NCBI GenBank assembly: GCA_964387845.1
Contig: CAYLXA010000013.1
Location: 25,521 to 89,520 of the forward strand
Origin: an uncultured bacterium
Lineage (GTDB): Bacteria > Omnitrophota > Omnitrophia > Omnitrophales > Abzuiibacteriaceae
Direction: 5' to 3'
DNA length: 64,000 nt
The notes under the pieces were generated by a model. It was not told where the DNA came from and did no database searches. It saw only the letters and a list, made by a program, of their open reading frames with translations. Position 1 is the stretch's first letter, and each line of letters starts with the position of its first letter. This document shows positions 5,584 through 64,000 of the stretch, one piece after another. The translations under genes were made by a program, and so were the position numbers.

Positions 5584-5589
5584 ATGGCC

Positions 5590-6810: not shown

Positions 6811-6812
6811 CG

Positions 6813-8334: not shown

Positions 8335-9816
8335 TTATACCTCCTGGAATTCAAATTTCAGGAGCTGTGATAAAATTTTCCCGGTCCAACGGTAAATATT
8401 GTTCTGGGCGACGATTTCGCGCATTTTACGCATGCGTTTCTCTTTTTCCTCCTGCGGCATCGCGAACGCTTGCTCAATCGCATCTGCAAATTGCTCCGAA
8501 TCGTAAGGATTGATCAAAATCGCATCCGACAACTCTCTGGATGCGCCTGTGAATTTTGACAGGATCAGAGCACCGCCCAAATCCTCGCGCGCCGCAACAA
8601 ATTCCTTTGAAACCAAATTCATTCCGTCGTGAAGCGAGCTCACAACACAAACATCCGCCATCCGGTAAAGGGCTAGAATGTCGTCATAACTCACATAAGT
8701 ACGCTTTAATACGATAGGTGCCCACGAATCAGTAGAATGTTTCCAGTTAATTTCCTCTACAAGCCCGTTAATTTCATCATTCAGATGTTTATAGCGAGGA
8801 ATGTGAATTCTTGAGATTTGGCCTATTTGAAGGAAAATAAATTTTTCTTTGTATTGAGGATATTTTTCAAGAAACCGGTCTATCGCGCGCAGTCTTTCGG
8901 GAATGCCCTTAGTGTAATCAATCCGGTCTACGCCGACGATTAATTTCAAATCACCGATTGAATACTCATCACGCAAGTTCTGAATCCGTGACCGGGTTTT
9001 GTCCGACGATGCTTGTTCCGAAATGGCTTCGAAATCAACCGAAATCGGAAATGCGCGTATCAGTGCTTCATGATTTTGAAACGAAACCGAGTCACGTTCA
9101 CGGTCAATCCGGCTTTCAACCTCGCGGTCAACCGTTGCGAAAAAATTATCCATGTGGTAACGAATCTGAAATCCGACAAGGTCGCACGATAAGAATCCTT
9201 CCAAAATTTCCTGTTTTTGCGGGCAAATCCTAAATACTTCCGGATTCGGCCACGGAATATGCCAGAAAATCGATGTGATGATATTCAAACGCCCGGAATC
9301 ACGTAGATATTTGGCAACGAGTGCGAGCTGAAAATCCTGGATCCAGACAAAAGCTTTTTCATTTCCGACTTCTGCTAAAACCGCATCCGCGAACATTTTG
9401 TTTACCTTCTGATAGGATTTCCAGTCGGCGTCGTTAAATAACGGCCTCGTATAAGCCACATGGCACAATGGCCAAAGCCCCTCATTGGAAAAACCGTAAT
9501 AGTATTTGTCACGGTCTTCTTTGCTGAGAAACATGCGTTTTAACTGGTAAGAAGGATTGTGCGGCGGGAGCATGACTTTTGAATTTGCATCGACCGCTTT
9601 TTTGTCGTGCTCACTTGAGGAGGCAGCAATCCAAGTTCCTTGGACGGCTTCCATGACGGGGCTAAGGGCGGTTACGAGGCCGCCCGGTTCGCGCTGACAG
9701 ATTAATTTACCGCTTTGCAGAACATGCTTGAACGGCTGCCGATTGGAGACTACGATGAGTTTATAGTCGGACAAACGTTCTTGTATGGTTTTTTGAAGCG
9801 TTTCTTTGGTCCACAT
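8335..9816 (-). CDS. otsA: Alpha,alpha-trehalose-phosphate synthase (GT20)
   Basis: The 493-aa protein has IVVSNRQP and GGLVTAL and a GT20-like layout. It abuts otsB. Confidence 0.9.
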   Translation of the reverse strand: MWTKETLQKTIQERLSDYKLIVVSNRQPFKHVLQSGKLICQREPGGLVTALSPVMEAVQGTWIAASSSEHDKKAVDANSKVMLPPHNPSYQLKRMFLSKEDRDKYYYGFSNEGLWPLCHVAYTRPLFNDADWKSYQKVNKMFADAVLAEVGNEKAFVWIQDFQLALVAKYLRDSGRLNIITSIFWHIPWPNPEVFRICPQKQEILEGFLSCDLVGFQIRYHMDNFFATVDREVESRIDRERDSVSFQNHEALIRAFPISVDFEAISEQASSDKTRSRIQNLRDEYSIGDLKLIVGVDRIDYTKGIPERLRAIDRFLEKYPQYKEKFIFLQIGQISRIHIPRYKHLNDEINGLVEEINWKHSTDSWAPIVLKRTYVSYDDILALYRMADVCVVSSLHDGMNLVSKEFVAAREDLGGALILSKFTGASRELSDAILINPYDSEQFADAIEQAFAMPQEEKEKRMRKMREIVAQNNIYRWTGKILSQLLKFEFQEV

Positions 9817-9825: not shown

Positions 9826-9872
9826 TTAAAATAGAAACCGCCACCTGAATTTTTCATTCAGATGGCGGCCCG
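9826..9872 (-). terminator. Hairpin plus U-tract between nuoN and otsA. It may be an intrinsic terminator or attenuator, read on the minus strand.
   Basis: Arms of 13-15 bp (aaccgccacctgaat / attcagatggcgg, one mismatch) with a 5-nt loop. The minus-strand RNA continues UUUCUAUUUU. The hairpin ends only ~20 nt before the otsA start. Confidence 0.4.
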
Positions 9873-10020
9873 GCCATCACTTCAAATTTAACCTCCGGAA
9901 TATTTCCGGACCCTTTGGCGTAGAAAAGATTTTAAACCGTTTTTAAAATAAGGGCAAGGTTTTTATCCGAGTTTAGGAGAAATTTTCTACGAATTTTATT
10001 TTCGACGGGTGAAAAATATT

Positions 10021-23300: not shown

Positions 23301-26300
23301 CGATATAGATATTGTTGTTGTGCTGAATCGCCGCAAAATCTGTGTAGTTGAAGTAAGCTGCGCAATAAGCCGGCGCCGCTTCTTTTTTGTAAACGATGTT
23401 GTTTAAGAACTGAATGTTGGGGGCGCTTGACGGACTTGCCTCTGCGCCGATGAGGACCACGTAACTATCGTATCCGTTGCCGATCAGTAAATTGTTATAG
23501 AATCGGCCGTTTTCTTGGACGTTGTCCAAAGACAAAGCTTTTCCGATCGATGCGTCTACCACGTTATTAAAGAATTCAATGTTGGAACCTATGCCGCCGA
23601 CCGTGCCGTTGATGTAATTGTTGTAATAGCGGCTGTTACGGTTGAGTTGAAGTGCGCCCGAAAGGCCGGCGTTGATCGTTATGTTGTTCGAAAATAAATT
23701 GCCAGCAGCATGTCCATAAATCACATGGCCGTATCGGTCATAGGTGTATTGCCAAGGATCTGATATTTCTGAAAGGCATATCTCAACAGGATAGCTGGAG
23801 TCGTCGGCAATGACGAGAGGCCCGATATTTTCAAATCGGTTGTTCTGATAAGTAAAATAGTTATCAATTGTCGGGTGGGGCGTTAGATCCGCGATACCCA
23901 TGCTATTAAGGCTTCTGAGAGTACTGTCATAAACTTCGATATATTGACCGGGATTTCCGCCGGGCAGCGGGTTCATTTTAATACCTTCCTCGCCATGCTG
24001 AATGGTTAAGCCGATGAAACGGATGTAGGATGCTGACGTGTAAAACCGGTTTTGTCCGGGAAAGTAAAACGAATGTTCTGACGGGTTGGTCCCGGACGGG
24101 AGGCGAATGTATAAGCGCCCACTTGTGCAATCGATAAAATAAGCGTTGAATGAAGTATTGGAATTCGGGATTGTTAATACATCAAGCATATCTTGATGAC
24201 GGAGCATGCGGCTGAAGGGCCGTTCAAGATCCATGATTATGCCTCTCGGATAATTTCCTTCACCGCCGTTTGCGTTAGGATCGTATGTTCCAAGCGATGT
24301 ATCAGTCCACCAGATTGAATAATTGCCCGCGTTTTCTGAAAATGTCCAGTTTGAAGGAATGCTTGCTCCCGAATCAATGACCGGTGTTTCGCCGGGATAG
24401 TTTCGAATGGTTACCCACTGATTCGGCGCTCCGCCGCGATCCATAAGGTTGTAGGATCCAAACGGCTGTGTTCCACCGCGGATGTAAACCGTATCTCCAG
24501 GATTGAGCTGATCAAACGTTGCGCTTACATTGCAAATCGGCTGGGCAAGAGATCCGGGGCCGCTGTTGCTGCACGCCGGATTATTTGCATCAACTACGTA
24601 GTAATTTCCCGCGCAATCGTTTGAACAATCAAAATGGCTTTCACGCCGGAGATCACAGTAACCGTCACCGCAAGTCCCGGCGCAATCCTGCGAGCAGGTT
24701 TGAACCGTCTCTGGCGCTTCACAAATACCGTCGCCGCAAAGTGCGGTAGTGGTAACCGAAAAAGACGCTTCAATGGTGTGGGTTGTTTGTACGTTGTTAA
24801 ACGTATAACTGGAAATAGCGCCTTGCGAAACGCTGTCGACGAGCACATCCGTAATTTCGTAACCGATATTGGGCGTGATTGTAAATATTTGATCGCTGCC
24901 TTCGGCAACATTGACCGTGCCGTTCGGTACAATGTAGCCGCCGTTATTTGCTGTTGCATTAATTGAATGTGAAGGGCCTTCTACTTGGCAGATTGAGCTG
25001 CAGCCGTCGCCGCTTGCCGTATTGCCGTCGTCGCAAGTTTCATTGCCGACGACTAAACCGTCACCGCAAATTGGATTACATTCTGGGTTGCTGCCGGGAT
25101 TTACAGTGTCAACGGAACAGGTCCAACCGGCCTCGTAATAAATCGTGTCTTGCATAATGGCCGAAATGTTTCCAACACTATCAATCAATCTGGCAAACAC
25201 TGTCCGTTCACCGCTCGGCCCGCTGGCAAGTTTCCAGCGCATGACGTTTTCATACGGAGTCGGGTCACTCCAAATTGTTCCGTTATTAGAAAATATTACG
25301 GATGTGATCGAGGATCCGCCTGAGTCAGAAACCGTTAAGTAGATATGCGAGTCTAACGAATAAGTAACCGCCGCGTCATTCTCAATCAGTATTGTTCCGC
25401 TCGGCGGTTCAAGATCAACGACAAACTGAACCACATTGGAATATTCGGTTGGGTTCCGCCCAAGTTGAAACGGCGGCACGGGCGGTGATTCCCATCCGCG
25501 CACGCGGGCGTGATAAGTATTTGAGGTGCTCAACGAAACAGGAACAAACGTATCGTTTGACCAAAGAGTCGTAACATTGGAAGCAAAATTAGGGTCGGTT
25601 GAAATTTTGATTTCGTAAGCATTTGAGCCCAGCGACGGAGTCCAAGCGAGATTAAAATCGCCGTCATTGGGCGTTGCGGGTTGCGCCAGAACAGGCTGGA
25701 CGGCGGCTTGTGACGCAAAAGCCCCAATGTGGCAGCCTGTGCTTCCGGTTGGCGTGACGGAAACATTAAAACCGTTTTCGATGACATTAAGGCACATGCC
25801 CGAGTGGCTTGCAGGACTGCCCGGTTGAAGATTGAAATCAGCGTTTGCGAGATCCACAAATTGCGGATCTGCTTGAATATTTGAATCTGCCAGATTGAAG
25901 TTATTAAAATCAGCTACTGAGTAAAGCCCGCTCACCACGATTTGCCCGTTTCCGCCGCCATCTTTTAAAGCTCTAATAACCGAAGTTTCGTGGGCCGGAT
26001 TAGACGAGTAAATCAAATTATTTCGAATGTCATCGCCGTATCCGCCAAAATTCGTATCAACATATTCCAGCGGATCGTAATGAAGCATTAGTAGCTCAGC
26101 ATTGAAAGTATTGCCGAAAGAGACTGGTGAAACATAATCATGGTTGGCATCCATCAAAATATTGTTCCAGATGCGGACATTATATATAGCATTCAGGGCG
26201 TCCGGAGGATTCCAGTTGAAATTGGCAGTATAAATTCCACGCGGCCCCGGACTGTGAATGGTATTGTTAAAGATGTATACGTCCTGAATTAAATTTTGGT

Positions 26301-29300
26301 CAGCAACATTTGCAACGAGCGTGATTCCGGTAGAATCGTTAAATCCGTCATAAATAACGTTATTGTAAATGTAAAGTCGTTCTGTTTTTCCGGGCCCGAT
26401 TTGAATTGCGCCGCCGCGGTGATTTGATTCTGAAGGGAATTGGTTGGTTCCAAAAAACGTGTTATTTCGAATAATCGTATTTTGTGAAATGCCGGGATTT
26501 CCGTCAATTGAACCGATGCCGAATGAAGTGTGAAACCGATTTCGGAATGTATTATTCTCTATTAAAACATTTTCAGAATTCCGGAAACCGACAGTTCCAT
26601 GTCCGCAATCACCGAACCAGCTGTTTTTAATAGTCGTATTTCTTGCATCATCGCCAACAATTCCGTCAACGCCGCCGCCGTTCATCAGAAGCAAGCTCGG
26701 GCTTGCCGTGCAATTTAAATTTAAATTGTCAATCTCTACTCCATCGGTATCGAGAACTTTAATTCCGTTTGCCCAAGGTTCCGCGTAACTTTGCTCCGGC
26801 GGCCAGCGGTGGCCAATGCCGATATCATCATTTCCGGTGAATGAAGTGACTGATATATTTTTGAGCTTGACGCCATTTGACCGTTGAATGCCAAGCACGT
26901 AGGGTGCATACAATCTTCCGCCTGCGGTATCGATATGCCCAATGAAATTTAATGAATCAAAAGTAATGTCGTTTGCCAAATAAGTTGTCAGCATATATAT
27001 GCCGATATTGCTGCCTTGAGCCGTCATACTGCTGCCGTGTAAATTCACGGTTTCATTCGGATAGCCGCGAATCGTAATCGGGTTTGCCTCAGTTCCCGAA
27101 CTTCGGATGACAATAAAATTGTTTGCATCAATGTAGGGGAGGAAGTAATCGCCGCCCCGAATGTAAACCGTATCGCCGATATTTAATTTTTCATAAGGAG
27201 ACGTTTCACGAAGCGCTCTCGGCGTGCACCACGGCGTATTGGGATCGAGTGCTTGAGTTCTTGAGTAACTGTCCGAACAGTCACAATTATTTTGATCAAT
27301 GAAAAGCATATTAGTTCCGTTCGCAAGCTCTTGCGGGTCGGAACTGCCGACCGTGCATCCGCCTTCGGATTGGCTTGTATATTCAAATGCGCCGGGCGCG
27401 CAACTTCCGCTTTCAGGACGCGGATTTCCGTCAAAATCCACCGCAACTTCCGGAAGACAAGGGACCGAGCCGATCGCAGGGCTGTCCTGCTGTAAATGAA
27501 AATCGCCGATACCAGCGTTTACGAAAAGCGGGTTGCCGTCTACGTTGTCTTCGGCGAATGACAGTGCATTAAATTCGTCGATGGTGTAGTGATAACGCTG
27601 CGTGTTCCGATTGTTGGTGCTTTGGACCGGGTCTTCGGCAGGATTGAGTTCTTTGACCCAGTTATTTTCAAACACATTTCCATAGCCATTTTGGCCTTCA
27701 AAATCCCAGCCGCCCAGCCGGATTTCGCCGTGAATTTGTTCTCCTTCGCCCGTATAAGTTTGAATTCCGTAGAAAATATTATTTTTGATTTGATTATTAT
27801 TGGCCCAATTATTTTGGCCGAAAACGCCGTTATTGCCGACGCTCATGTTGGCGTAGCCTGTGTTGTAAACCGTGTTGTGAAAGATTTTATTGTTGTTGGC
27901 TTCAAAGAATCCGGTGCCGGGCCCGTTTTGATCCTGAGAATTGGCAATCGAAATTCCGTTTCCATTTAATGCGCCGTTGTAAATCACATTGTTATAAATC
28001 AGGTTGTCACTGGCCCCCAAAATCTGAATGCTGTTTGCGCGAAGCGTGGTCTCCGAAGGAATTGAATTGTAAGTATGAAACGTGTTATTCCGGATGATGT
28101 TATCGTGAGAACCGACACCAACGGCGATATTGGTATGGAGCGTATTTGAAAAATCATTATTTTGCACCAAAACGTCATGCGTATTAAAACGAAGCACAAG
28201 TAGAATGTGGCCGCAGTCACGGAATGTATTGTTTTCGATTAAGCCGCCCGAGACATAATCCATCATGATGCCATCGCCGGAATAGCGGTTGTCCGGGTTA
28301 ATTTGATCGTTAACTTGCATGCATCGGAAAAAACTATTCTTCACTGTGATGTTGCTTGCATTATCAAATTCGATGCCGTTGCCATAAGGTGCATTAGGAG
28401 CGCGATCGTCGTAGCCGATGTCATCGGTGCCTTTGAAGTCAACAACCGAAATGCTGTCAAATACAATATCGCTGCTTCCGCTGACAACCTCAATGACTCG
28501 CGGGCCATACAATTTTCCGTTTGGGTTACCAACATCCACGTTGCCGACAAAATGAAGATTTTCAAATGTGATGAAATGAACGTCATTCAGAACAAATGTG
28601 CGTTCGAACGCTGTGTGCGCACCGCGGATGACTGCCGTTTCGCCGGGATATGAAGTGAATGTAATTCGGTTGCTATCGCTTGTGCCCGATGAATTGATTC
28701 TGACTGTGGTATCGACGATCGGATATTCACCGCCGCGAATATAAACGGTGTCGCCTGCGTTTAATTTGTGATTGGGCCGGTTTTCATGAAAGCCAAGAGG
28801 CGAACACCAGGGTGTATAAGGATCGCGTGCCGCATACCGGTCTCCAGCGTCGCTGCAGTTGCAATTATTTTTATCCACAAAGAGAACATTGGCGCCGTTG
28901 GCAAGCCCTTGCGGGTCAGAGCTTCCGGCTATGCAGCCTCCGAGCTCTGATGGGTGATTGTTGGGATCGTTGGGATTAAATCCGCCTGCAAATTCTTCAC
29001 CGTCTGAGTAGCCGTCACCGTCTGTGTCCGGATTATTAGGATCCGTGCCGTTTTGAAATTCCTGCAGATTGATAAATTGATCATTGTCCGGGTCATCCGT
29101 GCCGTTTTGATTGAGATTGCCGAAGTGCAGCATTTCCCAAACGTCCGGCAAACCGTCTTGATCTGTATCTGAAGTGTCGTTGTAAACATACTCGAATGGA
29201 CCGATGTCGCAGGCAGCGCCTTGCGGCCGGATATGGTTGTCAAAATCAAAATCTACTTCAGGAACACAGATTCCGGCATCCACTGCCGAGCTTTGCTCGG

Positions 29301-31257
29301 TTGGGTGAAAATCGTGATTCTGCGGATCGACAAATAAAGGCACGGTTCCGAGATTATCTACGATTGTTCCAGTCCCAAAAAGGTTATCCAGATTTTGAAG
29401 TGTGTAATCAAAGTGTATATACGGAGGATTGGAAGTTCCAAAATTTCGCGTAGACATCACAAATCCGCCCGGGTTGTCAGTCACCAGCAAATTATTTTTG
29501 ATTTCATTTCCGTAACCCTGATTGGGTTCGAAGCCATAAATATCAAAGAAAATAGGACGGTTGAGATAATACGCATATGTCTGAGAGTAAGGTCCGTCGG
29601 CAGCTCCGCCGGTTTTAAGCTGGATGATATTGTTTTGCACTTTGTTGTCATGCACATAATTGGTATTTGGCAACAGGACGTCATTTATATCCGGACGATT
29701 ATTAAACTCAATCGCTTTTACCATAGAGTTGTGCGTGGTTGCTGTCGGGTCGTCCATATAAATTAAATTATGATAAACCTGGTTCCGGTCGGAATTCGAA
29801 TCGCCGTTTCCGATAAAAGTAATGCCGTGCAAGGAACGCCGCCTCGGCTCGTCAGCGTCGTAGTAAATGATGTTGTTGTGGATTTGGCTGTCGGAAGCCG
29901 AGAGCATTTCAATGGCATGGCCGCCTTGGTTTCCCGTGGTCGGGTACACATTCCAGTTGTAAATCAAATTATTTTTAATAGTCATTTGACTGCCGCCGAA
30001 TGCAAAGCAGGTATGAAGTTCGTTATTACAGGAATTATTTTCAACCGTTATGTTGTCAGACCATCTAACCGTTAAGCTGATATGTCCGCAATTTCCAAAA
30101 GTACTATTTTTTACGCTGCCACCGGATACGCGATTAAATTGAATCCCGTCGCCCGAGAAGCGAAAATCTTCGGTCGGGCGCTCAGAGTATTCAGAGCAGC
30201 TGACAGATGCATTCTCGATTTTAATATTAGAAACGTCATCAAATTGTATTGCACTCCCCCAAGTTTCATAGTCTTCCCCGGTTTTCCGCCACCTAAAGCC
30301 GTAACCGATGTCATTGAGGCTTTGAAAATTAAGAACGCTTGTATCTAAAATTTGAATATCTTGGGCTGGATTTCCAACAGTCCCGCTAATTCTCAACGGA
30401 TTCGGCATGTAAAGTCTGCCTTCCGGCGTATCTTCATAGGCAATAAAATTAAGCCCCTTTAACGTAATGTAGCTGGCGTTATTCAAGATCAGAATCCACG
30501 AATAATTATAAGAGCCGCCGCGTATGGTAACCGGCTCATAACCACTCGGTTCAGTTTGAGAGGGATATGCTTGGATCGTGATCCGCTGCGCAGGCCCGGC
30601 GCCGGACGTATTAACGCTCGCATTATGTTCCGTATAGTCGCCGCGGCGAATGAAGACTGTATCGCCCGGATTCAATTTATGGTTTGGCCTGTATTCGGTT
30701 AACCCGCGCAAACTACACCACGGTGTTGCGGGATTTAAGGCTTCCGGGCGTTCACGGTTATCGCGGCAATTACAATTGCTCTGATCGACAAACAGAACAT
30801 TCAGCCCATTTGCCAAATTCAAAGGATCTGTATTGTTGTCACACTGACGAAGTGGAATACTGCTTGCGTTGGTCGGGCTACTGCCTAATCTGATCTCGTC
30901 GTCATCATTGACGCCATCTCCGTCTGTGTCATATCCGATGTTTCCGTTGCCCACAGTTGGATTGGTATTAAAAGCAACTTCCCGAAAGTTGGGCACTCCG
31001 TCTCTATCCGGATCGTCGTATTGATCATAACTTGTGATATCGCCAAAGTATTGAATTTCCCAATCATCTGAAAGGCCATCAAAATCAGTGTCAATTTCAC
31101 CGGCGGCAATTTGGGGAAGGGGAATGCCCATGAAGACGAGCGTGAAAATAATGATCAAAGAAACAAAATCAGAAAGAAATTTGGAAACAACTTTCTTGAA
31201 CTGCCGGGATTTTATTTTTTTTTTGTGTGATTTATCTGATTCGGAGCTTCGTCCCAT
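20371..31257 (-). CDS. Giant secreted multidomain surface protein (3628 aa). It has TSP3-like Ca-binding repeats, four pectate-lyase-type beta-helix modules, FN3/PKD-like domains, InlB-B-type repeats, a Myxococcus-type Cys-rich repeat and a Dictyostelium/EGF-like Cys-repeat region.
   Basis: A single uninterrupted ORF with an N-terminal signal/anchor ([18 protein letters not shown]). It has DxDxDGxxDxxE motifs and repeated NxxxN/right-handed beta-helix signatures. The module-start motif LANGxNVLF(V/I)DxxNC(N/D)C...TPWC...GDTVYIRGG occurs three times. A CGDGxxxxxExCDDGNxxSGDGCSxxC unit is present. About 20 CxxGxxxxxCDDGNxCTxDxC-like units lie between ~22435 and ~21130. Confidence 0.85.
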   Translation of the reverse strand: [3628 protein letters not shown]

Positions 31258-41758: not shown

Positions 41759-42024
41759 CCCCTAAAAAGCCTCGTAGACAAAACCGCGAAGTTTTAGTAC
41801 ACTCACTCAGAGTAACCATGACTTTCATTTAAGCAGTAAAGGCGTTTATCTATGGAAAGTCATGATAATCCCAACGCTTTTTGTTAATGGAATATTTATA
41901 ATTCTAATGATGCGTTGGGACAACCCAAATTCCTGCCAAACCGGTATAAATCCCTCAAAATTGGCTAGGGAGGGTGTTTAGCATTCATATATGATAAAAG
42001 CAGTCAGAATTTTTCAAGCTATAA

Positions 42025-43428
<1,404 letters not shown>

Positions 43429-46812: not shown

Positions 46813-47913
46813 ATGTGGTCTCAAATCGAATCAAAAATTAATTCTGGCGAAAGTCTGACGGAATTCGAAGCCCAGTGGCTTTTGGAGCGCGAGGAAGCTT
46901 CCGATTTAGAGCGTTTGTACTCTCTCGCCGGAAAGGTGAATGATCGGCTCAACGGAAATGTTGTGTCGTTCATCCACAACATGAACGTTAATTACACCAA
47001 TATTTGTGAATATCGCTGCACATTCTGTGAGTTTAAGAAGTCGCCAATCTCGAAAGACGCTTATATCCTCAGCTTTGACGATGTGAAGCACCGTTTGGAG
47101 CATGCCGACGGAAAAATCTCGGAAATTACCTATCAAGGCGGCCTTTCACCGGAAGTGACTTTCCATCAGGCGCTTGATTTGATGCACAAAATTAAAAGCG
47201 CTTATCCGCATATTCATTTTCACGCTTTTTCACCGGAAGAAATTGATTTTTATGCGGATGCAAACGGCCTGTCTTATCGCGAAACGATTCAGGAATGCCA
47301 AAAAGCCGGCATGGATTCGATGTGCGGAACGGCTGCCGAAGTTCTGGATGATGAAATCCGCCGGAAAATTTGCTGGGAGAAAATTTCGAGTGATGAATGG
47401 GTCGAAATTATCAAGACCGGCCACGAGCTCGGCATGAATTCCACAGCGACGATTCTTTTTGGCCATCTCGAAAAACCTGAAAATGTCGCACGTCATTTCA
47501 GACGGCTTCGTGATTTGCAGCGCGAAACGCGCGGGCTCACGGAATTTATCCCGCTTTTATTCATGCCGGACCGCACCAAACTCGGACGCGTTGTGGATCC
47601 GGAATTAGACAGAATTGAATATGCTTTCAAAATGATGGCTACGGCACGGCTTTATTTTATGAACGATATCCGCAATGTTCAAGTCAGCTGGGTCAAAATG
47701 GGATGGGAAAATGCGTTACTCGCTTTAAATCGCGGCGCCAACGACATGGGCGGAACACTTTACTACGAAAATATTACGCGTGAAGCCGGCGGCACGAACG
47801 GCGAATACACACCGGTTTCCAAATTTGTCTCCGAACTTTCCCGCATCGGCAAAATTCCCCAAGAGCGCGATACAACTTACTCCTTTCAAGAATCTTCTGC
47901 AATTACAAAGTAA
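46813..47913 (+). CDS. Second radical SAM enzyme of the MqnE/MqnC/CofG/CofH family, a paralog of the upstream gene
   Basis: The 366-aa protein has the cluster motif CEYRCTFCEF and the same domain layout as its neighbour. Confidence 0.65.
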   Translation: MWSQIESKINSGESLTEFEAQWLLEREEASDLERLYSLAGKVNDRLNGNVVSFIHNMNVNYTNICEYRCTFCEFKKSPISKDAYILSFDDVKHRLEHADGKISEITYQGGLSPEVTFHQALDLMHKIKSAYPHIHFHAFSPEEIDFYADANGLSYRETIQECQKAGMDSMCGTAAEVLDDEIRRKICWEKISSDEWVEIIKTGHELGMNSTATILFGHLEKPENVARHFRRLRDLQRETRGLTEFIPLLFMPDRTKLGRVVDPELDRIEYAFKMMATARLYFMNDIRNVQVSWVKMGWENALLALNRGANDMGGTLYYENITREAGGTNGEYTPVSKFVSELSRIGKIPQERDTTYSFQESSAITK

Positions 47914-47916
47914 AAT

Positions 47917-47950
47917 GGAGCTAGATTTAACCCAGCTCCATTTTTTAAAC
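47917..47950 (+). terminator. Putative intrinsic terminator after the radical SAM pair
   Basis: aatggagctagatttaacccagctccatttttt has an 8-9-bp stem followed by a T-run. Confidence 0.5.
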
Positions 47951-54172: not shown

Positions 54173-54240
54173 CAAAATTTGAACATTTCTCCCGCCCATG
54201 TTAACTTTTGATTAATAGAAGTCGTACTTAATGAATGATT

Positions 54241-54750
54241 ATGAAAACTCAATGTTCCAAAAAGGGCTTTACGTTGGCCGAAGTTTTGATCACGATCGCG
54301 CTGCTCGGCATTCTTGCTGCAATGGTGTTGCCACGTTTGACGGGGCAAACTGATAAGGCTAGAGCTGCTGAGGCGATTAATATGCTTGGTGCTATCCGAC
54401 AGGCCGAGATTTCTTACCGAAATGGTCCTGCAGGTGAATATCTTGGAATTCTTAACACAACTGACGGCGGCTGGTCTTGTGCGGATCCGGCTCTTTGGGC
54501 ACGTTTGGGCATTGGTGATCCAAATGGAAATCCCAATTCTTTATTTGGGTATTGTATAGACTGGACAGATGATCCTACTAGCGGTCCGGTTATATTTCGA
54601 GCAGTTGCGAGACGACTTAGTGCTGCAAATGCTGACGATGAAGTGATTACTTTAAATCAAGATGGAATTTGGGATGGTAATAGTCCCCATGTTCCTCAAA
54701 ATGAAGGTGGAGCAGATTGCGAGTCTAACTGGTTTCCTTGTTGGCCGTAG
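54241..54750 (+). CDS. Type IV pilin or pseudopilin (prepilin-type N-terminus)
   Basis: It has a class III signal, KKGF-TLAEVLITIALLGILAA, with F+1 and E+5 and a variable C-terminal domain. The start is set at MKTQ. Confidence 0.75.
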   Translation: MKTQCSKKGFTLAEVLITIALLGILAAMVLPRLTGQTDKARAAEAINMLGAIRQAEISYRNGPAGEYLGILNTTDGGWSCADPALWARLGIGDPNGNPNSLFGYCIDWTDDPTSGPVIFRAVARRLSAANADDEVITLNQDGIWDGNSPHVPQNEGGADCESNWFPCWP

Positions 54751-54759
54751 GATTTAAAT

Positions 54760-55230
54760 ATGCAAAATTCAAATAAAGGTTTTACGCTAACCGAACTTTT
54801 GATTACGATTGCTATCATTGGTATTTTGGCGGCAATTACGCTCCCGCGCTACTTTCAAACCGAAGCCGCGCGGGTTTCAGAAGCAACCTCTATGCTATCA
54901 ATGATACGTTTAGCAGAGGAAAGTTTTCAGGATCAAAATGGCTGCTATGCTTTAGTGGGTTCGTCAGGGACTTCATGCCCGACGCTCGGGGCCACTTGGA
55001 ATGCACTTGGAATAGAAATTCCTGCCAATAACTATTTTGATTACGAAATTGAAGCCGCCTCAGACACCACCTTTTGTGCATCTGCTACAAGAAATGGCAC
55101 AGGAAGTCCACCTGAAGAATATGAAGGTACTACAATTTGTATTGATGAAACCGGAGCTTTTTACGGTGACCATCCCAATGGGCCAAGCATTGGTTCGGCA
55201 TCGACAGGTGGTTGTAATACATTTTGCTAA
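54760..55230 (+). CDS. Type IV pilin or pseudopilin (prepilin-type N-terminus)
   Basis: [21 protein letters not shown] with E+5. The mature domain is 156 aa with Cys pairs. Confidence 0.75.
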   Translation: [156 protein letters not shown]

Positions 55231-55422
55231 TCAGGCATTTATTTTCTAGTATTTCCGGTCATTTTTTCTGTATAACTTCCATATAGCGCTTAAATAAGAT
55301 AATTCACACCGATTTCTCCGCATTGTTTTCATCTTCTGCCATGTTAAACTTTGTACAGGTTTGGCGGAAAGTAGAAATATAAGCTGTTTAAGGATTTCAG
55401 TTTTTATCAACTTTTACAAACT

Positions 55423-55944
55423 ATGACGCCAATAAGAAAAAATAAAAATTCAGAAAAAGGATTTACGCTGCTTGAAGTGATGGTTTCAGCGCTGGTTGTG
55501 TTAACTGCCGCCGCGATCAGCATGCAGCTTTTGCTTGCACCCAAAGAAAAAGTTGTAGAGCTTGAAATGCGCGCCGAAGTATCGCGCTATTTAAATACGC
55601 GCATTCAGGAAGTAAAAGACATGTCTTCGTTTCCGACAACAGGAATTGATGAACAGCACTATTGCAATCCAGGAACCGGGACTGGTTCTTGTAATGCCAA
55701 TATCTGTGGGAATATTTGTAATGCATACAGCAGCAAATGTGGCAGCGCATTAACGGATGATGCGCGGTTACGTGATATGATCAGCCGGATTCCGTCAATG
55801 TGTTTTGTCCACGTTGAAATGAACTTTGATTGCGGAGAACCAGTAGACAGTAGCGAAGCGACCCAGGTTTGTATCAAAGCAGAGTGGCCGAAGAAAGGAA
55901 GCGAGTATTATGAAGAAGCGCTCACTGCTTTTTTGGTTAAATAA
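55423..55944 (+). CDS. Minor pilin (PilV/FimT-like; prepilin N-terminal methylation domain)
   Basis: EKGF-TLLEVMVSALVVL with E+5. The 173-aa protein has a Cys-rich C-terminus. Confidence 0.65.
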   Translation: MTPIRKNKNSEKGFTLLEVMVSALVVLTAAAISMQLLLAPKEKVVELEMRAEVSRYLNTRIQEVKDMSSFPTTGIDEQHYCNPGTGTGSCNANICGNICNAYSSKCGSALTDDARLRDMISRIPSMCFVHVEMNFDCGEPVDSSEATQVCIKAEWPKKGSEYYEEALTAFLVK

Positions 55945-56572
55945 GTTGTTTTCGAGATCTGAAAGAGGCTTGAGTTTAATCGAGCTCATGGTCGCGATCA
56001 GCATTGTGCCGACCGTGATTTTCGCGTCATCTAATTTTCAGCTCTACTCCAGCAAAATCATGAACAATACCTACGACCGTGGTATGCGCTTGTCCGAACA
56101 AATTGTTATATTTCAATACCTAGAACGGACGATGATCAATGGCTCTTCTGCTATTACTCCAGTCGATTATCAAGGGTATCAAGCTTATACCGCGTGCCCA
56201 AATTCTAGTGATTTTAGTTGGAATAATAGATTGGTTATCAATTTGCCTACTAGTAGCGGTGCTGGCCAACCACCGGTTATTTATGATTTTCTGAAAAATT
56301 GTGGGGACACCGCTGCTCTTCTGCAAGTTACCTATGACATGAACGGAGATAGCCTGATTACGGCAAGCGAATTTACCAAAATTTCGTATTTTGGATCTGT
56401 TGATTATCCGGATGAAACTCCAGGTTTTACGGGAAGCAACAACGTGCCGTTTGTTTATGATACAGACAATAAAAAAGTTACAGTGAGACTTGGATTTAAG
56501 TCAACCGATCCAAATAGCCCGAAAATTACGGTTCCTTTGGAAATTAAATTGAGCGGAGGAAGCGGAACATGA
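55910..56572 (+). CDS. Minor pilin (PilW-like; prepilin N-terminal methylation domain)
   Basis: ERGL-SLIELMVAISIV with E+5. The 220-aa protein overlaps its neighbours in the way minor-pilin operons do. Confidence 0.6.
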   Translation: MKKRSLLFWLNKLFSRSERGLSLIELMVAISIVPTVIFASSNFQLYSSKIMNNTYDRGMRLSEQIVIFQYLERTMINGSSAITPVDYQGYQAYTACPNSSDFSWNNRLVINLPTSSGAGQPPVIYDFLKNCGDTAALLQVTYDMNGDSLITASEFTKISYFGSVDYPDETPGFTGSNNVPFVYDTDNKKVTVRLGFKSTDPNSPKITVPLEIKLSGGSGT

Positions 56573-59500
56573 AATTAATTCATCGCCGAGAATCCGGTTA
56601 TGCGCTTGCGGTGGTGATGTTTGTCCTCGCATTGTGGATTCCGGCTAGCTTAATTCAGGGTTATTTGAAGAATGCCCACATGATCAAGAACCTGTCAAAA
56701 CAGATTTCGGATACCAATCTTAAGTGGGCCACAGAATCAATTGCTAATCGCGCAATGTTTAATTTAAAAAATGCCATTCAGAACAACGGCCTTGATGATT
56801 GCATGTTTTGTCCGCCGACGGACGCAAATCCTCTTTGCGGTAGTTCAACACCTTCCGGCGGAGGAGGATGCCATGTGGCCGGTGTCGAGACTAATTCATT
56901 GGAATGGTTTAACGATATTGATGATACGGTGCCCGGCGTTGGTTTTCAGCAGTCGTTTTTAAATTTTCTTACACCAAACTCAGCATATCTTGCTTCCACA
57001 GTGCAAAGTACCGAAGTTTTGGAATTAAGTGTGAGAGCACTTGAAAATCCTTCACCGGCATCCGGTGTTGCAGTTTTTGATATTGGTGCGAAAGTAAAAC
57101 TTTCGGACCAGGTTGGAAATTTAACGTCCGGTATCAATCAACAATTTAGAATCCGATCGTCTAATATAGCAAGCTTTTCAATTTTCCTTGCTTGCGGCCA
57201 AGATTTTGTGGTGTCTCCGGGCACCAATACGCGTTTGGAAGGACCTATTTACGTTTGTGAAAATGCATTTTTAACACCCAACAAGAACACGGCACTGACC
57301 ATTGCATGTCCGGATTGCGATCGAAATAATCCCGATCCAAACATGTATGCATTGAAAACCAGCGGATCTATTATGTGGGGCGGGCCGGTAAAGATTGGCC
57401 AAACGCCGCCTACCCAAAATAATGCTACAAAACCTTATGAAACAGACGTGTACGGAAAACCCGTTCGTTATCAATTTTTGAGTAATATTGATTCGGGGTG
57501 GACGGGATTTGATACGACTCCGGGAATTGATGGGGCAGAAGCATTGAAGACAAGTATCATTGAAGTGCAAGATGTCCACGGAACCCAAGCAAGTCCTCAA
57601 TTTACGAGATTGATCGGCATGAATACAGCCACAGATCCCATTAGAGCTCCTCCGATTAAATTTGAATTTCTACGCGGCCCTGATCAGCACGTGCCGCCAA
57701 CCACCGCCCATACACCATTGGCTAATTTAAATACGGCGCCTTCCAATACAAACGTTCCAGCTAATAATGTTGTTGTTAATACTTCGCTTGCTTATGACTC
57801 GTTGAATCCAGAGCTTGTAGCGCCATTTATGAGCTCTGAAAATCAAATCTGGCGAAACTTTTTGGATAGTCATTTCCGGACCAGTGTAACGGATATTTAT
57901 TTTTTAGAAGACAAAGCCGCTCTCAGGACTTTGCAAATCGGTTCCGCAAATCCGCGAGATTTAATTGAGTTTGCATCTGATTCTGACAACAGTATTCTTA
58001 AAAATGTAAAGTTTCAATGGGTTGCATTCAACGCGCATAGATATGATCCGAATTTACCGGATCCGCATATTGCCAATTCATCCAGTGATTTTGCGGGTAT
58101 CTCGCTTGATTTTAGAAAGTACGGCTGTACCGGGTCTGTATGCACCGATACAACTACTATTAAAGGAGAAAACCCAACCAATTGGGGGGGCGCGAACGGA
58201 TTTTTGAATTTCCCATCAGTTACTTATCAAGACTGGCGGCGCGGACAATTTCCCATTAAAATTGTCGAATTGGATGTTGGAGCGCTAAAAGATTTGATCG
58301 TTCTGCCGGATGCGGATCCTCCTTCACCAAACGCTACGTATCCATTTCCCCGAAAACCTTTTGTTTTGTATATTGGTTTTGATACCAATTTATCCGCCCC
58401 ATATCATATTTTAAATTCGGTGTTGCGGATCAAGAATGCAGCTGAGTTGCCAGTGAACGGTTTAACCATCGCAACAAATGGATTTGTCCAAATTCAGGGT
58501 GATTACAATATAACAGGCACACCGCCCAGCCATGGCCCCGGCTCAGGGGATGTGTGCGGCATGATTCCGGCTGCGGTTGTGGCAGATCAAATCATGGTTC
58601 TTTCGAATAGCTGGCAGGATTGGACCAATTCAGGGCCGAATGCTCCGGCTTCGTTCGAAGATCCCTTTGTTGGCCCTGGTACAACTTTTCCGGCAGTTGA
58701 CAGTAATCCTAACCTGACGGGTATTCAGCCTTATCCAAAGCATAATTTCAGGTCGCATGTGATTTATCCAAACAAAAATGTGACAGTCAATGCTGTCTTG
58801 GTAGCCGGCGGTCTTAATGAGAAGTTGGAGCCTATGGATGTAGCAAGTTCTTTAGCGCGTTCTTTTGATGTAAATCCATTAACAGGATATTCATATGGAC
58901 AGCTTATGTTAAATAATCTCGTATTTCCATGGACTCGGTTTCCATATTTGAGAAATCGGCGCTTATCACAGGATAATACAGGCGTTTGTCCATTTTCTCC
59001 GGGCATTTTTCCGGAAGTTGGAACGCCGCCAACGGCTGCTACTAACCCCGAGTGTTTTGATGTTTCCGGTATCACGAGAATTAAAAGCAATAATTGGAGA
59101 AACACAAGAGTCCAAATCATTGATTATGAACCGCCTGCCGGAAGTTGTAATGGAAATTCACCTTGTATTATTGATTTGGGCCCTATCGGCGATGTTGCTA
59201 CTGCCATTACTATCGGAAGCCAAACTTACAAAGGCTTTTTATATGGCTGTACTTCTTGTAATGGTATGCCAGGCTATACTAGCGCAGCTGATCTTAACGA
59301 TAATATACCGCTTTATATTAAAGTAGATGAAAATGGACGCCATGTGGCGCCTTGTAATCCGGATGGTTTTACGCCTGCCGGAACAGTTGCCTGCGATGAT
59401 CCTTCTGTTGCTGGGTTTTTAAACACGTCTGTGGTTAGTTTGGAAACTGCACATCTTATAACAAAAGTAGAAAATGTTAGCGGAAGCTGGGTCGTGACTT

Positions 59501-60375
59501 CTCCCGATATAGTTCCGGTACCAAATTCACCAGTGAGTCCCAGTGAATACGACTATACGCAGGTGAAGCCAGGCGCCCGGTTTGCAGCTTTTGCACGGCA
59601 CACTTATGATCCTGCGTATCCAAATAATGCGCGCCGCTTGATCATGCCCGATAGTATCACTTTAGGTTGTTGCACAACAAGCGGAGGGTCAACCAGCTGC
59701 CCTTACGTATGTGACGGAAACCCTCCCGGATGCAGCGTAGGTAATATTGGTTCAAACTGTAGTTATTCAACTTATTGTCCGAGTTGTGCCGCAAATATCT
59801 GTGGTGGTGAGGGATGTACGCAATCACCACAAGTGAATCCAAGCTCACTGACCTGCACTGGCATGGGATGGCAATGTCCAACAGCTACAAACGGTTTAGG
59901 CACCTGTTCTACTAGCTGTGCAGTTTCCGGACAAAGTGTTCCAAACCCATACCCCGTGATTCGATATTCAAAAGGAGGTAATACCAGACAAATGGCAGCT
60001 GATCCCTTCAGTGTAACGGCAATGAAATTTGTCTATCTCCCTTATTATGTGCAAAGATACAGCGGCGGGTTTGAAAATATGATCCGTTTTGGGGAAGATT
60101 GGGTTTCTTGGAATTGTTCCGGAAATCCTGCGTCTTGTACGCCATTAACAACCTCAAGGTCGGTAGAATTAAACGGTTCAGTTCATAAGCTTTGGGAATC
60201 TGTAACGCTCAAGAAAGCGGATAACACTTCATTTGCATATTGGGCTCCTGATACATACACGGCACCGAACAGAATTTTCCAATATTCGAGTGAGCTGAAA
60301 CATGAAGAATGCGTGCCACCGGCTATGCCGCGCGCAACGCCTGAAAGCGAAGATTTGAATGTGAGGAGATTTTAA
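56569..60375 (+). CDS. Large pilus-associated protein with a PilX-like N-terminal anchor (1268 aa). Possibly a tip adhesin.
   Basis: The N-terminus is RRESGYALAVVMFVLALWI, a PilX-N-like hydrophobic segment without E+5. It is followed by a long extracellular region that is Cys-rich toward the C-terminus. It sits at the pilX/pilY1 position of a fimU-pilVWXY1E-like operon. Confidence 0.55.
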   Translation: MKLIHRRESGYALAVVMFVLALWIPASLIQGYLKNAHMIKNLSKQISDTNLKWATESIANRAMFNLKNAIQNNGLDDCMFCPPTDANPLCGSSTPSGGGGCHVAGVETNSLEWFNDIDDTVPGVGFQQSFLNFLTPNSAYLASTVQSTEVLELSVRALENPSPASGVAVFDIGAKVKLSDQVGNLTSGINQQFRIRSSNIASFSIFLACGQDFVVSPGTNTRLEGPIYVCENAFLTPNKNTALTIACPDCDRNNPDPNMYALKTSGSIMWGGPVKIGQTPPTQNNATKPYETDVYGKPVRYQFLSNIDSGWTGFDTTPGIDGAEALKTSIIEVQDVHGTQASPQFTRLIGMNTATDPIRAPPIKFEFLRGPDQHVPPTTAHTPLANLNTAPSNTNVPANNVVVNTSLAYDSLNPELVAPFMSSENQIWRNFLDSHFRTSVTDIYFLEDKAALRTLQIGSANPRDLIEFASDSDNSILKNVKFQWVAFNAHRYDPNLPDPHIANSSSDFAGISLDFRKYGCTGSVCTDTTTIKGENPTNWGGANGFLNFPSVTYQDWRRGQFPIKIVELDVGALKDLIVLPDADPPSPNATYPFPRKPFVLYIGFDTNLSAPYHILNSVLRIKNAAELPVNGLTIATNGFVQIQGDYNITGTPPSHGPGSGDVCGMIPAAVVADQIMVLSNSWQDWTNSGPNAPASFEDPFVGPGTTFPAVDSNPNLTGIQPYPKHNFRSHVIYPNKNVTVNAVLVAGGLNEKLEPMDVASSLARSFDVNPLTGYSYGQLMLNNLVFPWTRFPYLRNRRLSQDNTGVCPFSPGIFPEVGTPPTAATNPECFDVSGITRIKSNNWRNTRVQIIDYEPPAGSCNGNSPCIIDLGPIGDVATAITIGSQTYKGFLYGCTSCNGMPGYTSAADLNDNIPLYIKVDENGRHVAPCNPDGFTPAGTVACDDPSVAGFLNTSVVSLETAHLITKVENVSGSWVVTSPDIVPVPNSPVSPSEYDYTQVKPGARFAAFARHTYDPAYPNNARRLIMPDSITLGCCTTSGGSTSCPYVCDGNPPGCSVGNIGSNCSYSTYCPSCAANICGGEGCTQSPQVNPSSLTCTGMGWQCPTATNGLGTCSTSCAVSGQSVPNPYPVIRYSKGGNTRQMAADPFSVTAMKFVYLPYYVQRYSGGFENMIRFGEDWVSWNCSGNPASCTPLTTSRSVELNGSVHKLWESVTLKKADNTSFAYWAPDTYTAPNRIFQYSSELKHEECVPPAMPRATPESEDLNVRRF

Positions 60376-63056
60376 TGAAGTGGCTCCAGCGGTTTAAACT
60401 GATAAAAGGAATCACGTTATTCGAATTGATCGTTGTTATTGCGATCATTGGAATATTGGCAGCCGTCGGTGTTCCAAGTTTTGAAAGCATGATCAAAAAG
60501 CGTGAGCTCAAGAATGCAAGCGAAAATCTTTTCTCCATTCTAAACGGAATTCGTTCATGGGAACTCCAGCATCCTCAATCTTTATTCCCCGGAGAAGTGT
60601 ACGATGCTGATTTTTGGGTAAATAATTGGAAGTCTAATTTAACGTCCCAATATCTCAGCAAAATGAACGACAAAACACCCGATAACCCTCTTTTACTTAC
60701 ATTGGAAAGTGGGGTTCGGAAAATAGAGTACTATTTAGCGCCTCATGCGGCTGATTTTCTCCACATTTATGGTACATATTCGGTAAATAATAATCCGCAG
60801 GGTTTTGTTTATCTAACTTATGACGGAATTTTGAGTACCGAATCAGTCGTGCCAGGCACATGTCCTAACGGAGTGTTGGGCCCTGGAGAGCAATGCGAAA
60901 ATGATTTTCATTGCGCTGGTGTAGCGACCTGTAACACAGCGACATGCACTTGTTCGGGCGGGGGCGGTTCATGCGGAGATGGGACTGTCAATAACGGTGA
61001 ACAATGCGATGATAACAACACTATATCCGGCGATGGCTGCAGCTCAACGTGTCGAGATGAAGTCTGCGGTGACGGCATTAAACAGGATGACGAGGGTTGC
61101 GATGGCAACCCAAATCAGTGTCCTCCGATTGCGGGTAATAATGTAGTTTGTACAACTGCCTGCGAATGTTCTTATAGTCCGATTGGAAATGCTTTGTGCG
61201 GTGACGGAACTGTTACTGCTCCGGAATTGTGTGACCGTGGAAATTTGCCGATTATTCCAGCTATTGGATGTCCTGTTGGATCGGTTTGTGCTGGCGATTG
61301 CAAGTCTTGTTGTGGTGACGGTATTTTAACGCCATCTAGTTCAGAAGTTTGCGATATCGGTGTCGGGTGCGGAGCAATCACGGGTTCTGTTTGTAATTCA
61401 ACTTGTTCTGCCTGCGAATGTCCGTCGGGAGAAAGTGAGAATCCGCCGGGTTCAGGCCATTGTTGTCCGACGGGAACCTCATGGAACGGATCAAGCTGCA
61501 GCGCTTGCGGGAATAACGCGCTGGATGTTGGCGAGATTTGCGACGAGTCGGCTTTTCCCAACGGCTGTCCGTTTGATCAGGAGTGTAACGCTGCTTGTAA
61601 TGCATGTTCCTGTCCGGCCGGAACTGCTTTGAGCAATTATCATTGCTGCCCGGTCGGTTCAGTGTGGAACGGCCATGACTGTACGACTTGCGGTGACGGC
61701 GTAAAATCCGGCTGGGAACAGTGCGATCCAACCGATCCTGATGCAGCAGATCAAACGTGTACGCCTTACACGCCGTCCGGCCTACCGGGTTGCGGCATGA
61801 TGGGAAAATCCGAACGTTACTCTTTGCAAAGCGGTTCAGTTGAAGAAATTTTATCCGAACAAATGTCTTATTATAACCTTTCTAAATCAGGCCCGGCACC
61901 GATGGCAGACCCTTGTCCGCCTGGTTCGCCTCAACCGAGATATTGTCAGGAGTGCTTATGTGTTCCCGGATCAGGCGGAATTTGCGGCAATAATCTTCTG
62001 GAAACAGGCGAGCAATGCGACGACGGCAATACAACTTCAGGTGATGGCTGCAGTGCAAGCTGTCAGCAGGAATATTGTGGTGACTCAGTCATTCAACCTG
62101 GTTTAAATGAGCAGTGCGACAATAGCGCTTGTGCCCCCAATCCGAACCCTCCTCCGCTTGGGACACCTCTATTTTGTATGAACTGTCAATGCCAGTGTGT
62201 GCCATTTTTGTGTAGTCAGGGCAGTGTTCCTAATATGGAAACTTGTTCGTGCGATCCGATGCCTTGTGATAGTACATCCGATTGCGATGATCAAAATGAA
62301 TGTACGGATGATAGCTGTGATTTAACCGCGGGGCATTGCGTATTTGATGGCACCGGCATGAACGGTCTGGCTTGCGATGATGGAGATATCTGCACAACAG
62401 GTGAACAATGCGACGCCGGAATTTGTATCGGCGGAACAGCCACATCGTGCGATGACGGAAATCCGTGCACAACCGACGTATGTGATTATGATACCGGCTG
62501 TATAAATCAAAATTTACCGAATGGAACTTCCTGCGCTGACGCAGATTTGTGTGATGGCGATGAAGTTTGTGATAACTTTGGCGTTTGTCAACCCGGAGTG
62601 TCGGTGGTCTGCACAGCGCTGGATCAATGTCATGACGTTGGCGTTTGCGATCCGGGAACCGGTGTCTGCTCGAATCCTATCAAAGCCGACGGCACAAGTT
62701 GTGTTCATCCGAATTCAAGCCAAACGTGGGATCATGACGGTAATCCCGGCACTCCTGAAATCCCGGTGTATGATAACGAATGTTATCTCCAGGAATGTAT
62801 CGCTGGCGCATGTCAATTTACAACCGGTTTATATGATTCAAATGAATGTGATTATGATGGACTACCGCAAAGCGGCTGTAACTATGAAACATGCAGCGCT
62901 GGATGGTGTATTCCGGATACTCCCGGCTGTCCCGGCGGCAGTTGCGTAGATTGTCCCAACCAAATCGGATCGCCAATTGCAGCATGCGGCGGCTCTCTTT
63001 GCGCTCAGTCTTCTGCCGATCCGCTTGACCCCAGTTTGGGGTATTGCTGCGCATAA
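60375..63056 (+). CDS. Giant type IV pilin (893 aa). A prepilin N-terminus is fused to a ~740-aa Cys-rich repeat domain made of Myxococcus-type and Dictyostelium/EGF-like repeats.
   Basis: [20 protein letters not shown] with E+5. Myxococcus-type units: [27 protein letters not shown] at ~60969..61075 and [27 protein letters not shown] at ~61982..62088. A Dictyostelium/EGF-like unit [13 protein letters not shown] is also present. This gene is last in the operon. Confidence 0.7.
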   Translation: [893 protein letters not shown]

Positions 63057-63102
63057 TACGGCTAATCGCCGATTTACACCTAAAAATAATCTAAAAATAA
63101 TG

Positions 63103-63131
63103 TTGACATAGATTTTATCTAATCATATAAT
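63103..63131 (+). promoter_or_regulatory. Perfect consensus sigma70 promoter, TTGACA-17-TATAAT
   Basis: ttgaca at 63103..63108, a 17-nt spacer, then tataat at 63126..63131. It lies 335 nt upstream of the 16S 5' end. Confidence 0.6.
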
Positions 63132-63277
63132 CTCTCACTTTTGGGAGAGGCTCTGAGTAGTAATTCCTACCATAGTTGTAAGTCCCATACGGTCATTAAT
63201 AAATTAAATTTTGTGATTGCAGAAGACGATAAATTGGTTCGTCGTCTTTATTGAAAACTTTTGTCTTAAAAATAAAG

Positions 63278-63330
63278 GACGCCCTTACTTAGAAAAGGGC
63301 GTCCTTTATTTTCTGTTTTTTTGCTCTTTC
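63278..63330 (+). promoter_or_regulatory. boxB-like hairpin followed by a boxA-like TGCTCTTTC in the rRNA leader. Alternatively it is an intrinsic terminator.
   Basis: aaaggacgccctt acttagaa aagggcgtccttt is a perfect 13-bp stem. It is followed by attttctgtttttt, then tgctctttctta, which resembles the boxA consensus GCTCTTTAACAA. Confidence 0.45.
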
Positions 63331-63437
63331 TTATAGTTTGAATTTGTGCGAGGGTCAATGTCTCAACATATGAGTCCAAGTCAGTTGAGCTTCATATATA
63401 TGTATGAAGTTTGATTGACGAAAGATTCAAATACTAA

Positions 63438-64000
<563 letters not shown>

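Follow-up and report, generated by a model that had tools for sequence, protein, structure and literature searches.

A consensus promoter and a putative nut-like leader upstream of the 16S rRNA gene in an Omnitrophota-related bacterium

The region immediately upstream of the 16S rRNA gene in the 64-kb stretch of DNA analyzed here (hereafter, the window) most likely comprises the single promoter of the rRNA operon followed by a transcribed leader of about 300 nt that carries a nut-like module. The leader lies between the promoter and the 16S gene, contains a boxA close to the consensus, and has a stem-loop 5' of boxA (Table 1). A preliminary description of this DNA had offered two readings, of which the first, an rrn leader with the hairpin as boxB followed by boxA, is borne out: the same order recurs in nine related leaders, hairpins abut boxA in outgroup leaders, and the E. 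coli rrnB leader shares the boxB-boxA-boxC order.

Table 1. Features of the region upstream of the 16S rRNA gene (positions in the window)
Feature	Position	Strand	Basis
A/T-rich tract CACCTAAAAATAATCTAAAAATAATG, UP-element-like, 5' of the -35 hexamer	63076..63102	+	Similarity to L123 starts at 63076
-35/-10 promoter, TTGACA-17-TATAAT	63103..63131	+	Sigma-70-type; 12/12 positions in pattern scan
HP1, branched leader hairpin, 15 pairs	63142..63187	+	Consensus fold of the window, L123 and L129
HP2, A/U-rich leader hairpin	63190..63219	+	Three-sequence consensus fold
HP3, leader hairpin	63221..63250	+	Three-sequence consensus fold
HP4, boxB-position hairpin shaped like an intrinsic terminator	63269..63312	+	13-bp GC core at 63274-63307, extended to 18 bp; pattern scan and folding
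T-rich linker TTTATTTTCTGTTTTTTT, hairpin to boxA	63305..63321	+	T/pyrimidine-rich linker of 9-33 nt in all clade members
boxA-like element TGCTCTTTCTTATAG, core GCTCTTT	63322..63336	+	Identical in L123 and L129
boxC-like TGTGCGAGGG and presumed 5' strand of the 16S leader-trailer helix	63345..63379	+	Conserved in L123 and L129
HP5, leader hairpin directly 5' of 16S	63380..63419	+	dG -21.5, z = -8.1
16S rRNA gene, first 563 nt, truncated where the window stops	63438..64000	+	Rfam RF00177 SSU_rRNA_bacteria, 505.9 bits, model positions 1-541

Results and discussion

Conservation of the leader among related rRNA operons

Eleven related rRNA leaders on other contigs, for which the first 563 nt of 16S are 75-94% identical, served for comparison with the window. 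An exact 16S 23-mer, GGATAAGGCATGCAAATCGAACG, had no match in the genome or metagenome contig collections; the A in the CAAATCG of this 23-mer is specific to the window sequence. A looser 16S pattern retrieved 119 genome loci, chiefly from Patescibacteria and a few from Omnitrophota, the best relative in the genome collection being the Omnitrophota locus L030 (81.6% across the 5' 563 nt of 16S), and a two-part 16S pattern retrieved eight loci on metagenome contigs. The 16S identity to the window is 93.7% for L123, 84-85% for L122, L120, L121, L126 and L124, 81.8% for L127 and 75% for L125. The third close relative, L129, was reached via P0002 in a protein search with the upstream gene, and its contig ends inside the leader; P0003 (33% identical) was rejected as a route to a syntenic relative, the corresponding locus, L130, not being syntenic.

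Nine relatives (L123, L129, L122, L120, L121, L126, L127, L030 and L026) share the order of an A-rich tract, a near-perfect promoter, a leader of 95-184 nt, a GC hairpin, a linker of 9-33 nt, boxA (YGYTCTTT), a boxC-like segment with the leader strand, and the 16S gene, with 58-124 nt between boxA and 16S. In a blastn comparison, L123 and the window yield a single long match of about 90% identity that begins at 63076 and continues into 16S until the window stops, whereas the genes upstream of the rRNA are not alignable as DNA and encode proteins that are 31% identical. Thus, the leader evolves as slowly as the rRNA itself, and the abrupt onset of similarity at 63076, next to so divergent a protein, indicates that selection acts on the whole leader and the rRNA together, as a single unit.

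The same comparisons bear on the explanation that HP4 is the terminator of the upstream operon and is adjacent to the rRNA gene only incidentally. The upstream gene, with a stop at 63056, encodes a Cys-rich DUF4215/Dicty_CTDC protein and ends a pilin-like operon (54235-63056, plus strand) that has no other terminator-like site past its stop codon. However, HP4 is located 213 nt beyond that stop and 3' of the rrn promoter, conservation with L123 begins only at 63076, and the hairpin is conserved in relatives with unrelated upstream genes, which, judging from the last translated residues, appear to be glmS-like in L120, L121 and L126 and tyrS-like in L030 and L127. None of the relatives seen had the hairpin next to the Cys-rich gene in the absence of an rRNA gene, and we regard this explanation as vanishingly improbable.

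A single consensus promoter

The textbook strong promoter of the preliminary description is present in full: the -35 hexamer TTGACA (63103-63108) and the -10 hexamer TATAAT (63126-63131) are separated by a 17-bp spacer and form the sole 12/12 promoter site detected by the pattern scan within 61000-64000. The spacing predicts a transcription start at about 63137-63138. Equivalent sites, TTGAC(A/T)-16/17-TATAAT, occupy the same position in L123, L129, L122, L120, L121, L126, L127 and L030. Near-consensus promoters are the norm for rRNA operons, with a site of at least 11/12 in 60 of the 102 rRNA upstream regions surveyed, so that a perfect promoter is unremarkable in this context. The tract at 63076-63102 is near-identical in L123 and L129, and A-rich tracts also precede the promoter in L120, L122, L121 and L126; by analogy with E. 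coli rrn P1, this tract may function as an UP element. A 10/12 site at 63073-63101 was discarded as a promoter, given that it is not conserved (L123 reads AAACAC, compared to TTTACA in the window).

The pattern scan identified no second, P2-type promoter inside the leader: there is no site of at least 9/12 in 63132-63438, an interval that includes the space between the hairpin and boxA. Therefore boxA can be transcribed only from the promoter at 63103.

Hairpins of the leader

In the consensus fold of the window, L123 and L129, four hairpins (HP1-HP4) precede boxA. Across the three sequences, 97% of the stem cells are paired, with nine one-sided changes overall. In HP1, every cell is paired and there is one G-U to A-U change; HP2 provides no covariation information because its sequence is almost invariant; HP3 shows five one-sided changes with the pairing kept (A-U to G-U in L123) and a different loop. 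HP4 is retained in L123 and L129 with one compensatory change (G-C to A-U) and three one-sided changes, and the base of its stem, GGAC...GTCC, is found in L030 and L127 as well. The outer stem of HP5 differs between L123 and the window (GUCAGUU/GAUUGAC versus CUAAUC/GAUUAG) and the fold is kept in L123, which is indicative of compensatory change. The overall covariation is no better than that in shuffles (267/500), a comparison that is uninformative with three close sequences only, and the substitutions in HP1-HP5 are best described as compatible with the predicted fold rather than as proof of it.

The local hairpin ctctc/gagag that the preliminary description placed at the start of the RNA does exist in the DNA (63132-63149) and could form in L123 too, given G-U wobbles, but its 5' arm precedes the likely start (about 63137/63138) and it is absent from the consensus fold. 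A small open reading frame at 63141-63254 was ruled out: the leaders of the window, L123 and L129 differ by single-base indels, which excludes a coding function.

The second reading in the preliminary description was that the promoter drives only an independent small RNA of about 170 nt and that the rrn promoter lies elsewhere. A promoter and a strong terminator-like hairpin about 180 nt apart would suit a gene for an RNA of about 175 nt, its fold is more stable than those of shuffled sequences (z = -4.4), and the sequence is strongly conserved. All the same, there is no promoter-like site 3' of the hairpin, and boxA, which adjoins the T-run, must be transcribed from upstream; the conserved block runs unbroken from the upstream element into 16S; in every relative, the element is found only directly before 16S, with a leader length that varies from 95 to 184 nt; and the fold consists of successive local hairpins, with neither the rod of 6S nor any other recognizable small-RNA shape. 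No copies of the element away from an rRNA gene were found in the window or in 131 loci. The covariance-model scan that had been proposed for this segment gave no family match, with best scores of 15-25 bits against Rfam gathering scores of 43-229; permissive E-values added just hairpin-driven chance matches (miRNA precursors, SprD), and neither a tRNA nor a further Rfam family was found in the region. An independent small-RNA gene is accordingly very unlikely; a short terminated RNA might still arise from the rrn promoter as a by-product.

BoxA and the boxC-like segment

The boxA-like sequence reported previously, TGCTCTTTC, occupies 63322-63330, directly after the T-run; the nine relatives have a boxA at the same relative position. 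In the window, 7 of the 8 core bases agree with the E. coli boxA (consensus UGCUCUUUAACAA), and the 3' half differs from it. Across the nine relatives, G(C/T)TCTTT is invariant at the equivalent position, the variants being TGTTCTTTC/G in L127 and L030, TGTTCTTTGA in L122, TGCTCTTTGAC in L026, and CGCTCTTTGAAA and CGTTCTTTGAAA in L120, L126 and L121 (summarized as CG(C/T)TCTTTGAAA). By itself, the 8-mer YGYTCTTT is not significant in the window (17 occurrences versus 14.4 expected); its significance derives from the conserved position in the relatives. L120 and L122 are complete 16S-tRNAIle-tRNAAla-23S operons and contain a second boxA in the 16S-23S spacer (TGTTCTTTGACAA and TGATCTTTGACAA, respectively), in each case with a preceding hairpin.

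Several other boxA-like sequences were observed. An earlier box in the window, TCGTCTTTATTGAAAA at 63244-63259, consists of the 3' arm of HP3 and its tail and would be sequestered by base-pairing. An early boxA-like CGATCTTTATA is located about 25-35 nt past the start site in L120, L121, L122 and L126, with TTTCTTTGACA in L026. In these lineages, GATCTTT is validated as a variant of boxA, being present in the spacer of L122 and in the leaders of L050, L104 and L076.

Downstream of boxA, the boxC-like TGTGCGAGGG spans 63345-63354, and the entire segment 63345-63379 is invariant across the window, L123 and L129 save for one substitution and a 1-nt insertion in L129. Pairing with the sequence directly 3' of 16S is seen for the homologous segments of L120 (GTGCGCAAAG...) and L122 (AGCGCAAAGCCG...), and the GTGCGCAAAG shared by L120, L121 and L126 is complementary to the trailer. 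The window segment would similarly be expected to pair with its own 16S trailer, which lies past position 64000. An RNAduplex control for the leader-trailer helix was clear for L120 (about 4 sd) and weak for L122 (about 2 sd), in the latter case because long interior loops are allowed; this helix is better seen by direct reading than by RNAduplex.

HP4 as boxB or as a terminator

The perfect 13-bp hairpin with a U-run of the preliminary description was likewise recovered. The core stem consists of AAAGGACGCCCTT (63274-63286) and AAGGGCGTCCTTT (63295-63307) with the loop ACTTAGAA, followed by CTGTTTTTTT, and the T-run extends up to 63321; A-T pairs lengthen the 13-bp core to 18 bp (63269-63312). 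The minimum free energy is -26.9 kcal/mol, compared to -8.3 +/- 2.7 in shuffles (z = -7.0). In sequence, HP4 has the makings of a strong intrinsic terminator, with 18 pairs (7 G-C), an A-tract 5' and a T-tract 3', the U-tract of 7-9 nt directly following the GC-rich hairpin. The scanner rates it close to the E. coli rrnB T1 terminator (20 pairs, 8 G-C) and finds no terminator-like site in the E. coli rrnB leader. Within the 64-kb window, HP4 is the strongest terminator-like site, the runner-up being the terminator of an nhaA-I riboswitch. Its location is not that of a terminator: HP4 is found between the sole promoter and 16S rather than at the 3' end of a unit, and boxA follows directly. Since there is no promoter 3' of HP4, polymerase must pass HP4 for rRNA to be made. 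Two insertions distinguish the window from L123 and L129, where TTTATTTTC is followed directly by TGCTCTTTC: AA within the 5' A-tract and, in the linker, the 8-nt TGTTTTTT particular to the window, each of which improves the terminator form.

These features invite the alternative that HP4 is a working terminator placed before boxA. Under this scheme, the hairpin and T-run would terminate a sizeable fraction of polymerases, freeing a conserved leader RNA of about 180 nt (HP1-HP4), and the frequency of read-through would set rRNA output via an unknown factor or the conserved 5' leader, with HP1-HP3 serving as a sensor or antiterminator, or as part of a functional leader RNA. The strength of HP4, on a par with rrnB T1 in the scan and equal to the nhaA-I riboswitch terminator, speaks for this possibility, and the latter equality suggests that the polymerase of this organism responds to such signals. 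So do the two insertions specific to the window; the 130 nt 5' of HP4, which are as conserved as 16S and have no known role; and the consensus promoter, which would be expected to allow little control at initiation. Furthermore, because HP4 is upstream of boxA, polymerase could not be shielded from HP4 by antitermination that depends on boxA. Conversely, folding up to the HP4 loop revealed no conserved strong competitor pairing for the HP4 5' arm in the window, L123 and L129. In L120, L122, L121 and L126, the T-run is at least 9-10 nt off the stem, a non-canonical arrangement, yet the module is kept, which argues against termination as the conserved function. In many outgroup leaders, moreover, the 'T-run' is boxA itself, so the terminator look may be a side effect of the boxB-boxA arrangement. 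On balance, attenuation in the leader appears unlikely, and the same applies to a dedicated sensor or leader-RNA role of the upstream hairpins.

The outgroup survey covered the 52 candidate-phyla leaders with a promoter of at least 11/12, drawn from the 102 rRNA upstream regions. A hairpin of at least 7 bp with a T-rich tail was detected in 17 of the 52, compared to 1.5 expected from dinucleotide shuffles, and in most of these 17 the T-rich tail itself is a boxA-like motif, as in CCTGATTTTGTTCTTTGAAAA (L044), GGGGAGT-TGTTCGTTGAAA (L056) and GCGCC-GAAA-GGCGC-C-CGATCTTTGAAAG (L104). Hence the hairpin with boxA is a general module that the scanner scores as a terminator: boxA is 75% T, so an adjacent boxB hairpin satisfies simple terminator rules. 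The extra T-rich linker in the clade of the window adds to the resemblance; among the loci with a recognizable boxA, a strict-form hairpin ending 0-30 nt 5' of boxA is seen in this clade only. As part of the rrn-leader reading, the T-run 3' of HP4 is probably a lineage-specific boxB-boxA linker and not a gene end.

Proposed mechanism and comparison with known systems

For the rrn leader that we favor, the following course of events can be proposed. Polymerase would start at about 63137 from the consensus promoter with its A-rich upstream tract and would transcribe the conserved HP1-HP3 first, followed by the nut-like module, that is, HP4 in the boxB position, the T-rich linker, boxA TGCTCTTTC and the boxC-like segment. 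The latter would begin the strand whose expected partner is the 16S trailer; having read through HP4, polymerase would then enter 16S. On the model of E. coli, NusB/NusE and other Nus factors would be recruited by boxA, would render polymerase resistant to termination and would aid the folding and processing of the rRNA. No nus genes are present within the window.

The order of elements in E. coli rrn leaders is boxB-boxA-boxC (PMC10250234; PMC3177189), and the 8-nt core of boxA is bound by NusB/NusE (PMC3177189). In the rrnB leader, which served as the control, the boxB hairpin is followed by boxA TGCTCTTTAACAA and then by TGTGTGGG. Similarly, the hairpin, boxA and a putative GU-rich boxC-like element are found in the same 5'-3' order between the promoter and 16S in the window, the boxC-like element would begin the leader-trailer strand, and the spacer boxA has its counterpart in the relatives L120 and L122. 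The distance from boxA to mature 16S is about 115 nt in the window, compared to positions -147 to -133 in E. coli (PMC10250234). Unlike in E. coli, the hairpin is 13-18 bp long rather than about 6 bp, is separated from boxA by a T-rich linker of 9-17 nt (9-33 nt over the clade) that completes its resemblance to an intrinsic terminator, and is preceded by about 130 nt of conserved hairpins upstream of the hairpin-boxA module; there is one promoter rather than P1 and P2, and the 3' half of boxA reads CTTATAG rather than AACAA/GAAAA.

HP4 resembles E. coli rrnB T1 in its GC-rich stem, 5' A-tract, 3' T-tract, 44-nt palindrome and near-equal scan score, but is located at the start rather than the end of a transcription unit. 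The nutL and nutR sites of phage lambda combine boxA with a stem-loop and an intervening spacer that is bound by NusA (PMC3177189, PMC2724277). The window also has boxA and a stem-loop with a spacer between them, but the lambda order, boxA then boxB, is reversed here, the stem does not carry a GNRA-like pentaloop, and nothing implies an N protein.

Other features of the related loci and the window

In both L120 (4655-4680) and L122 (2040-2052), 7-9 consecutive T directly follow the trailer strand of the helix between the 16S leader and trailer, so that this long-range helix, with its T-run, is also terminator-like, just before tRNA-Ile. About 100-120 nt 5' of 16S in L121 and L126, a purine-rich hairpin 3' arm, AGAGGAGGAG, pairs with either the upstream CCTCC or the downstream CTCTCTTTTT; the AGAGGAGGAG-CTCTCTTTTT pairing has a T-run after it, and the alternative structures are attenuator-like. 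In L030 (1405-1480, minus strand), a long GC-rich hairpin, CGGGTGGCCGAGATT...AATCTCGGCCAGGACCCG, separates the rrn promoter from the stop codon of the preceding gene, which appears from its translated end to be tyrS. L122 contains a group I intron (4410-5059; Rfam 61.1 bits) within the 23S rRNA gene.

Within the pilin-like operon of the window, four pilin-like (N_methyl) genes are followed by a gene for a 1268-aa protein (56569-60375, plus strand) with no Pfam domain, for which a search of 5.8 billion proteins at E <= 1e-20 returned only the protein itself; L129 encodes a syntenic 1271-aa gene (1665-5480). The nhaA-I (Na+) riboswitch at 9835-9913 on the minus strand (Rfam 44.1 bits, gathering score 37) overlaps a strong terminator hairpin at 9835-9871 (dG about -25) and precedes an operon (2280-9816, minus strand) that encodes an OtsA-like GT20 protein, a trehalose phosphatase, a DUF5752 protein, a TreT-like synthase, a Na+/H+ exchanger and a CitMHS transporter; this arrangement would connect Na+ sensing with trehalose synthesis. 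A single open reading frame of 3628 aa occupies 20371-31257 on the minus strand. TPP riboswitches before thiC are common in bacteria; at the Rfam gathering threshold, none was reported in the 278 nt (41759-42036) before ThiC (42037-43428). The window has just one further strong bidirectional terminator-like site, a 15-bp palindromic hairpin with A- and T-run flanks at 47912-47944, just past a MqnC/CofH-like gene (46813-47913).

Conclusions

Were HP4 to terminate transcription after all, attenuation in the leader would govern rRNA synthesis from a constitutive consensus promoter. For annotation, the analysis implies that terminator-scored hits in rRNA leaders should not, without further evidence, be taken as gene ends or small-RNA genes. 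The rrn-leader reading, which we consider the probable one, fixes the promoter, the start region and the leader anatomy of the rRNA operon in a barely sampled lineage, the closest named relative of which is an Omnitrophota genome with 82% identity across the 5' 563 nt of 16S. With this reading, the boxB-boxA-boxC layout known from E. coli would extend to this Omnitrophota-related lineage.
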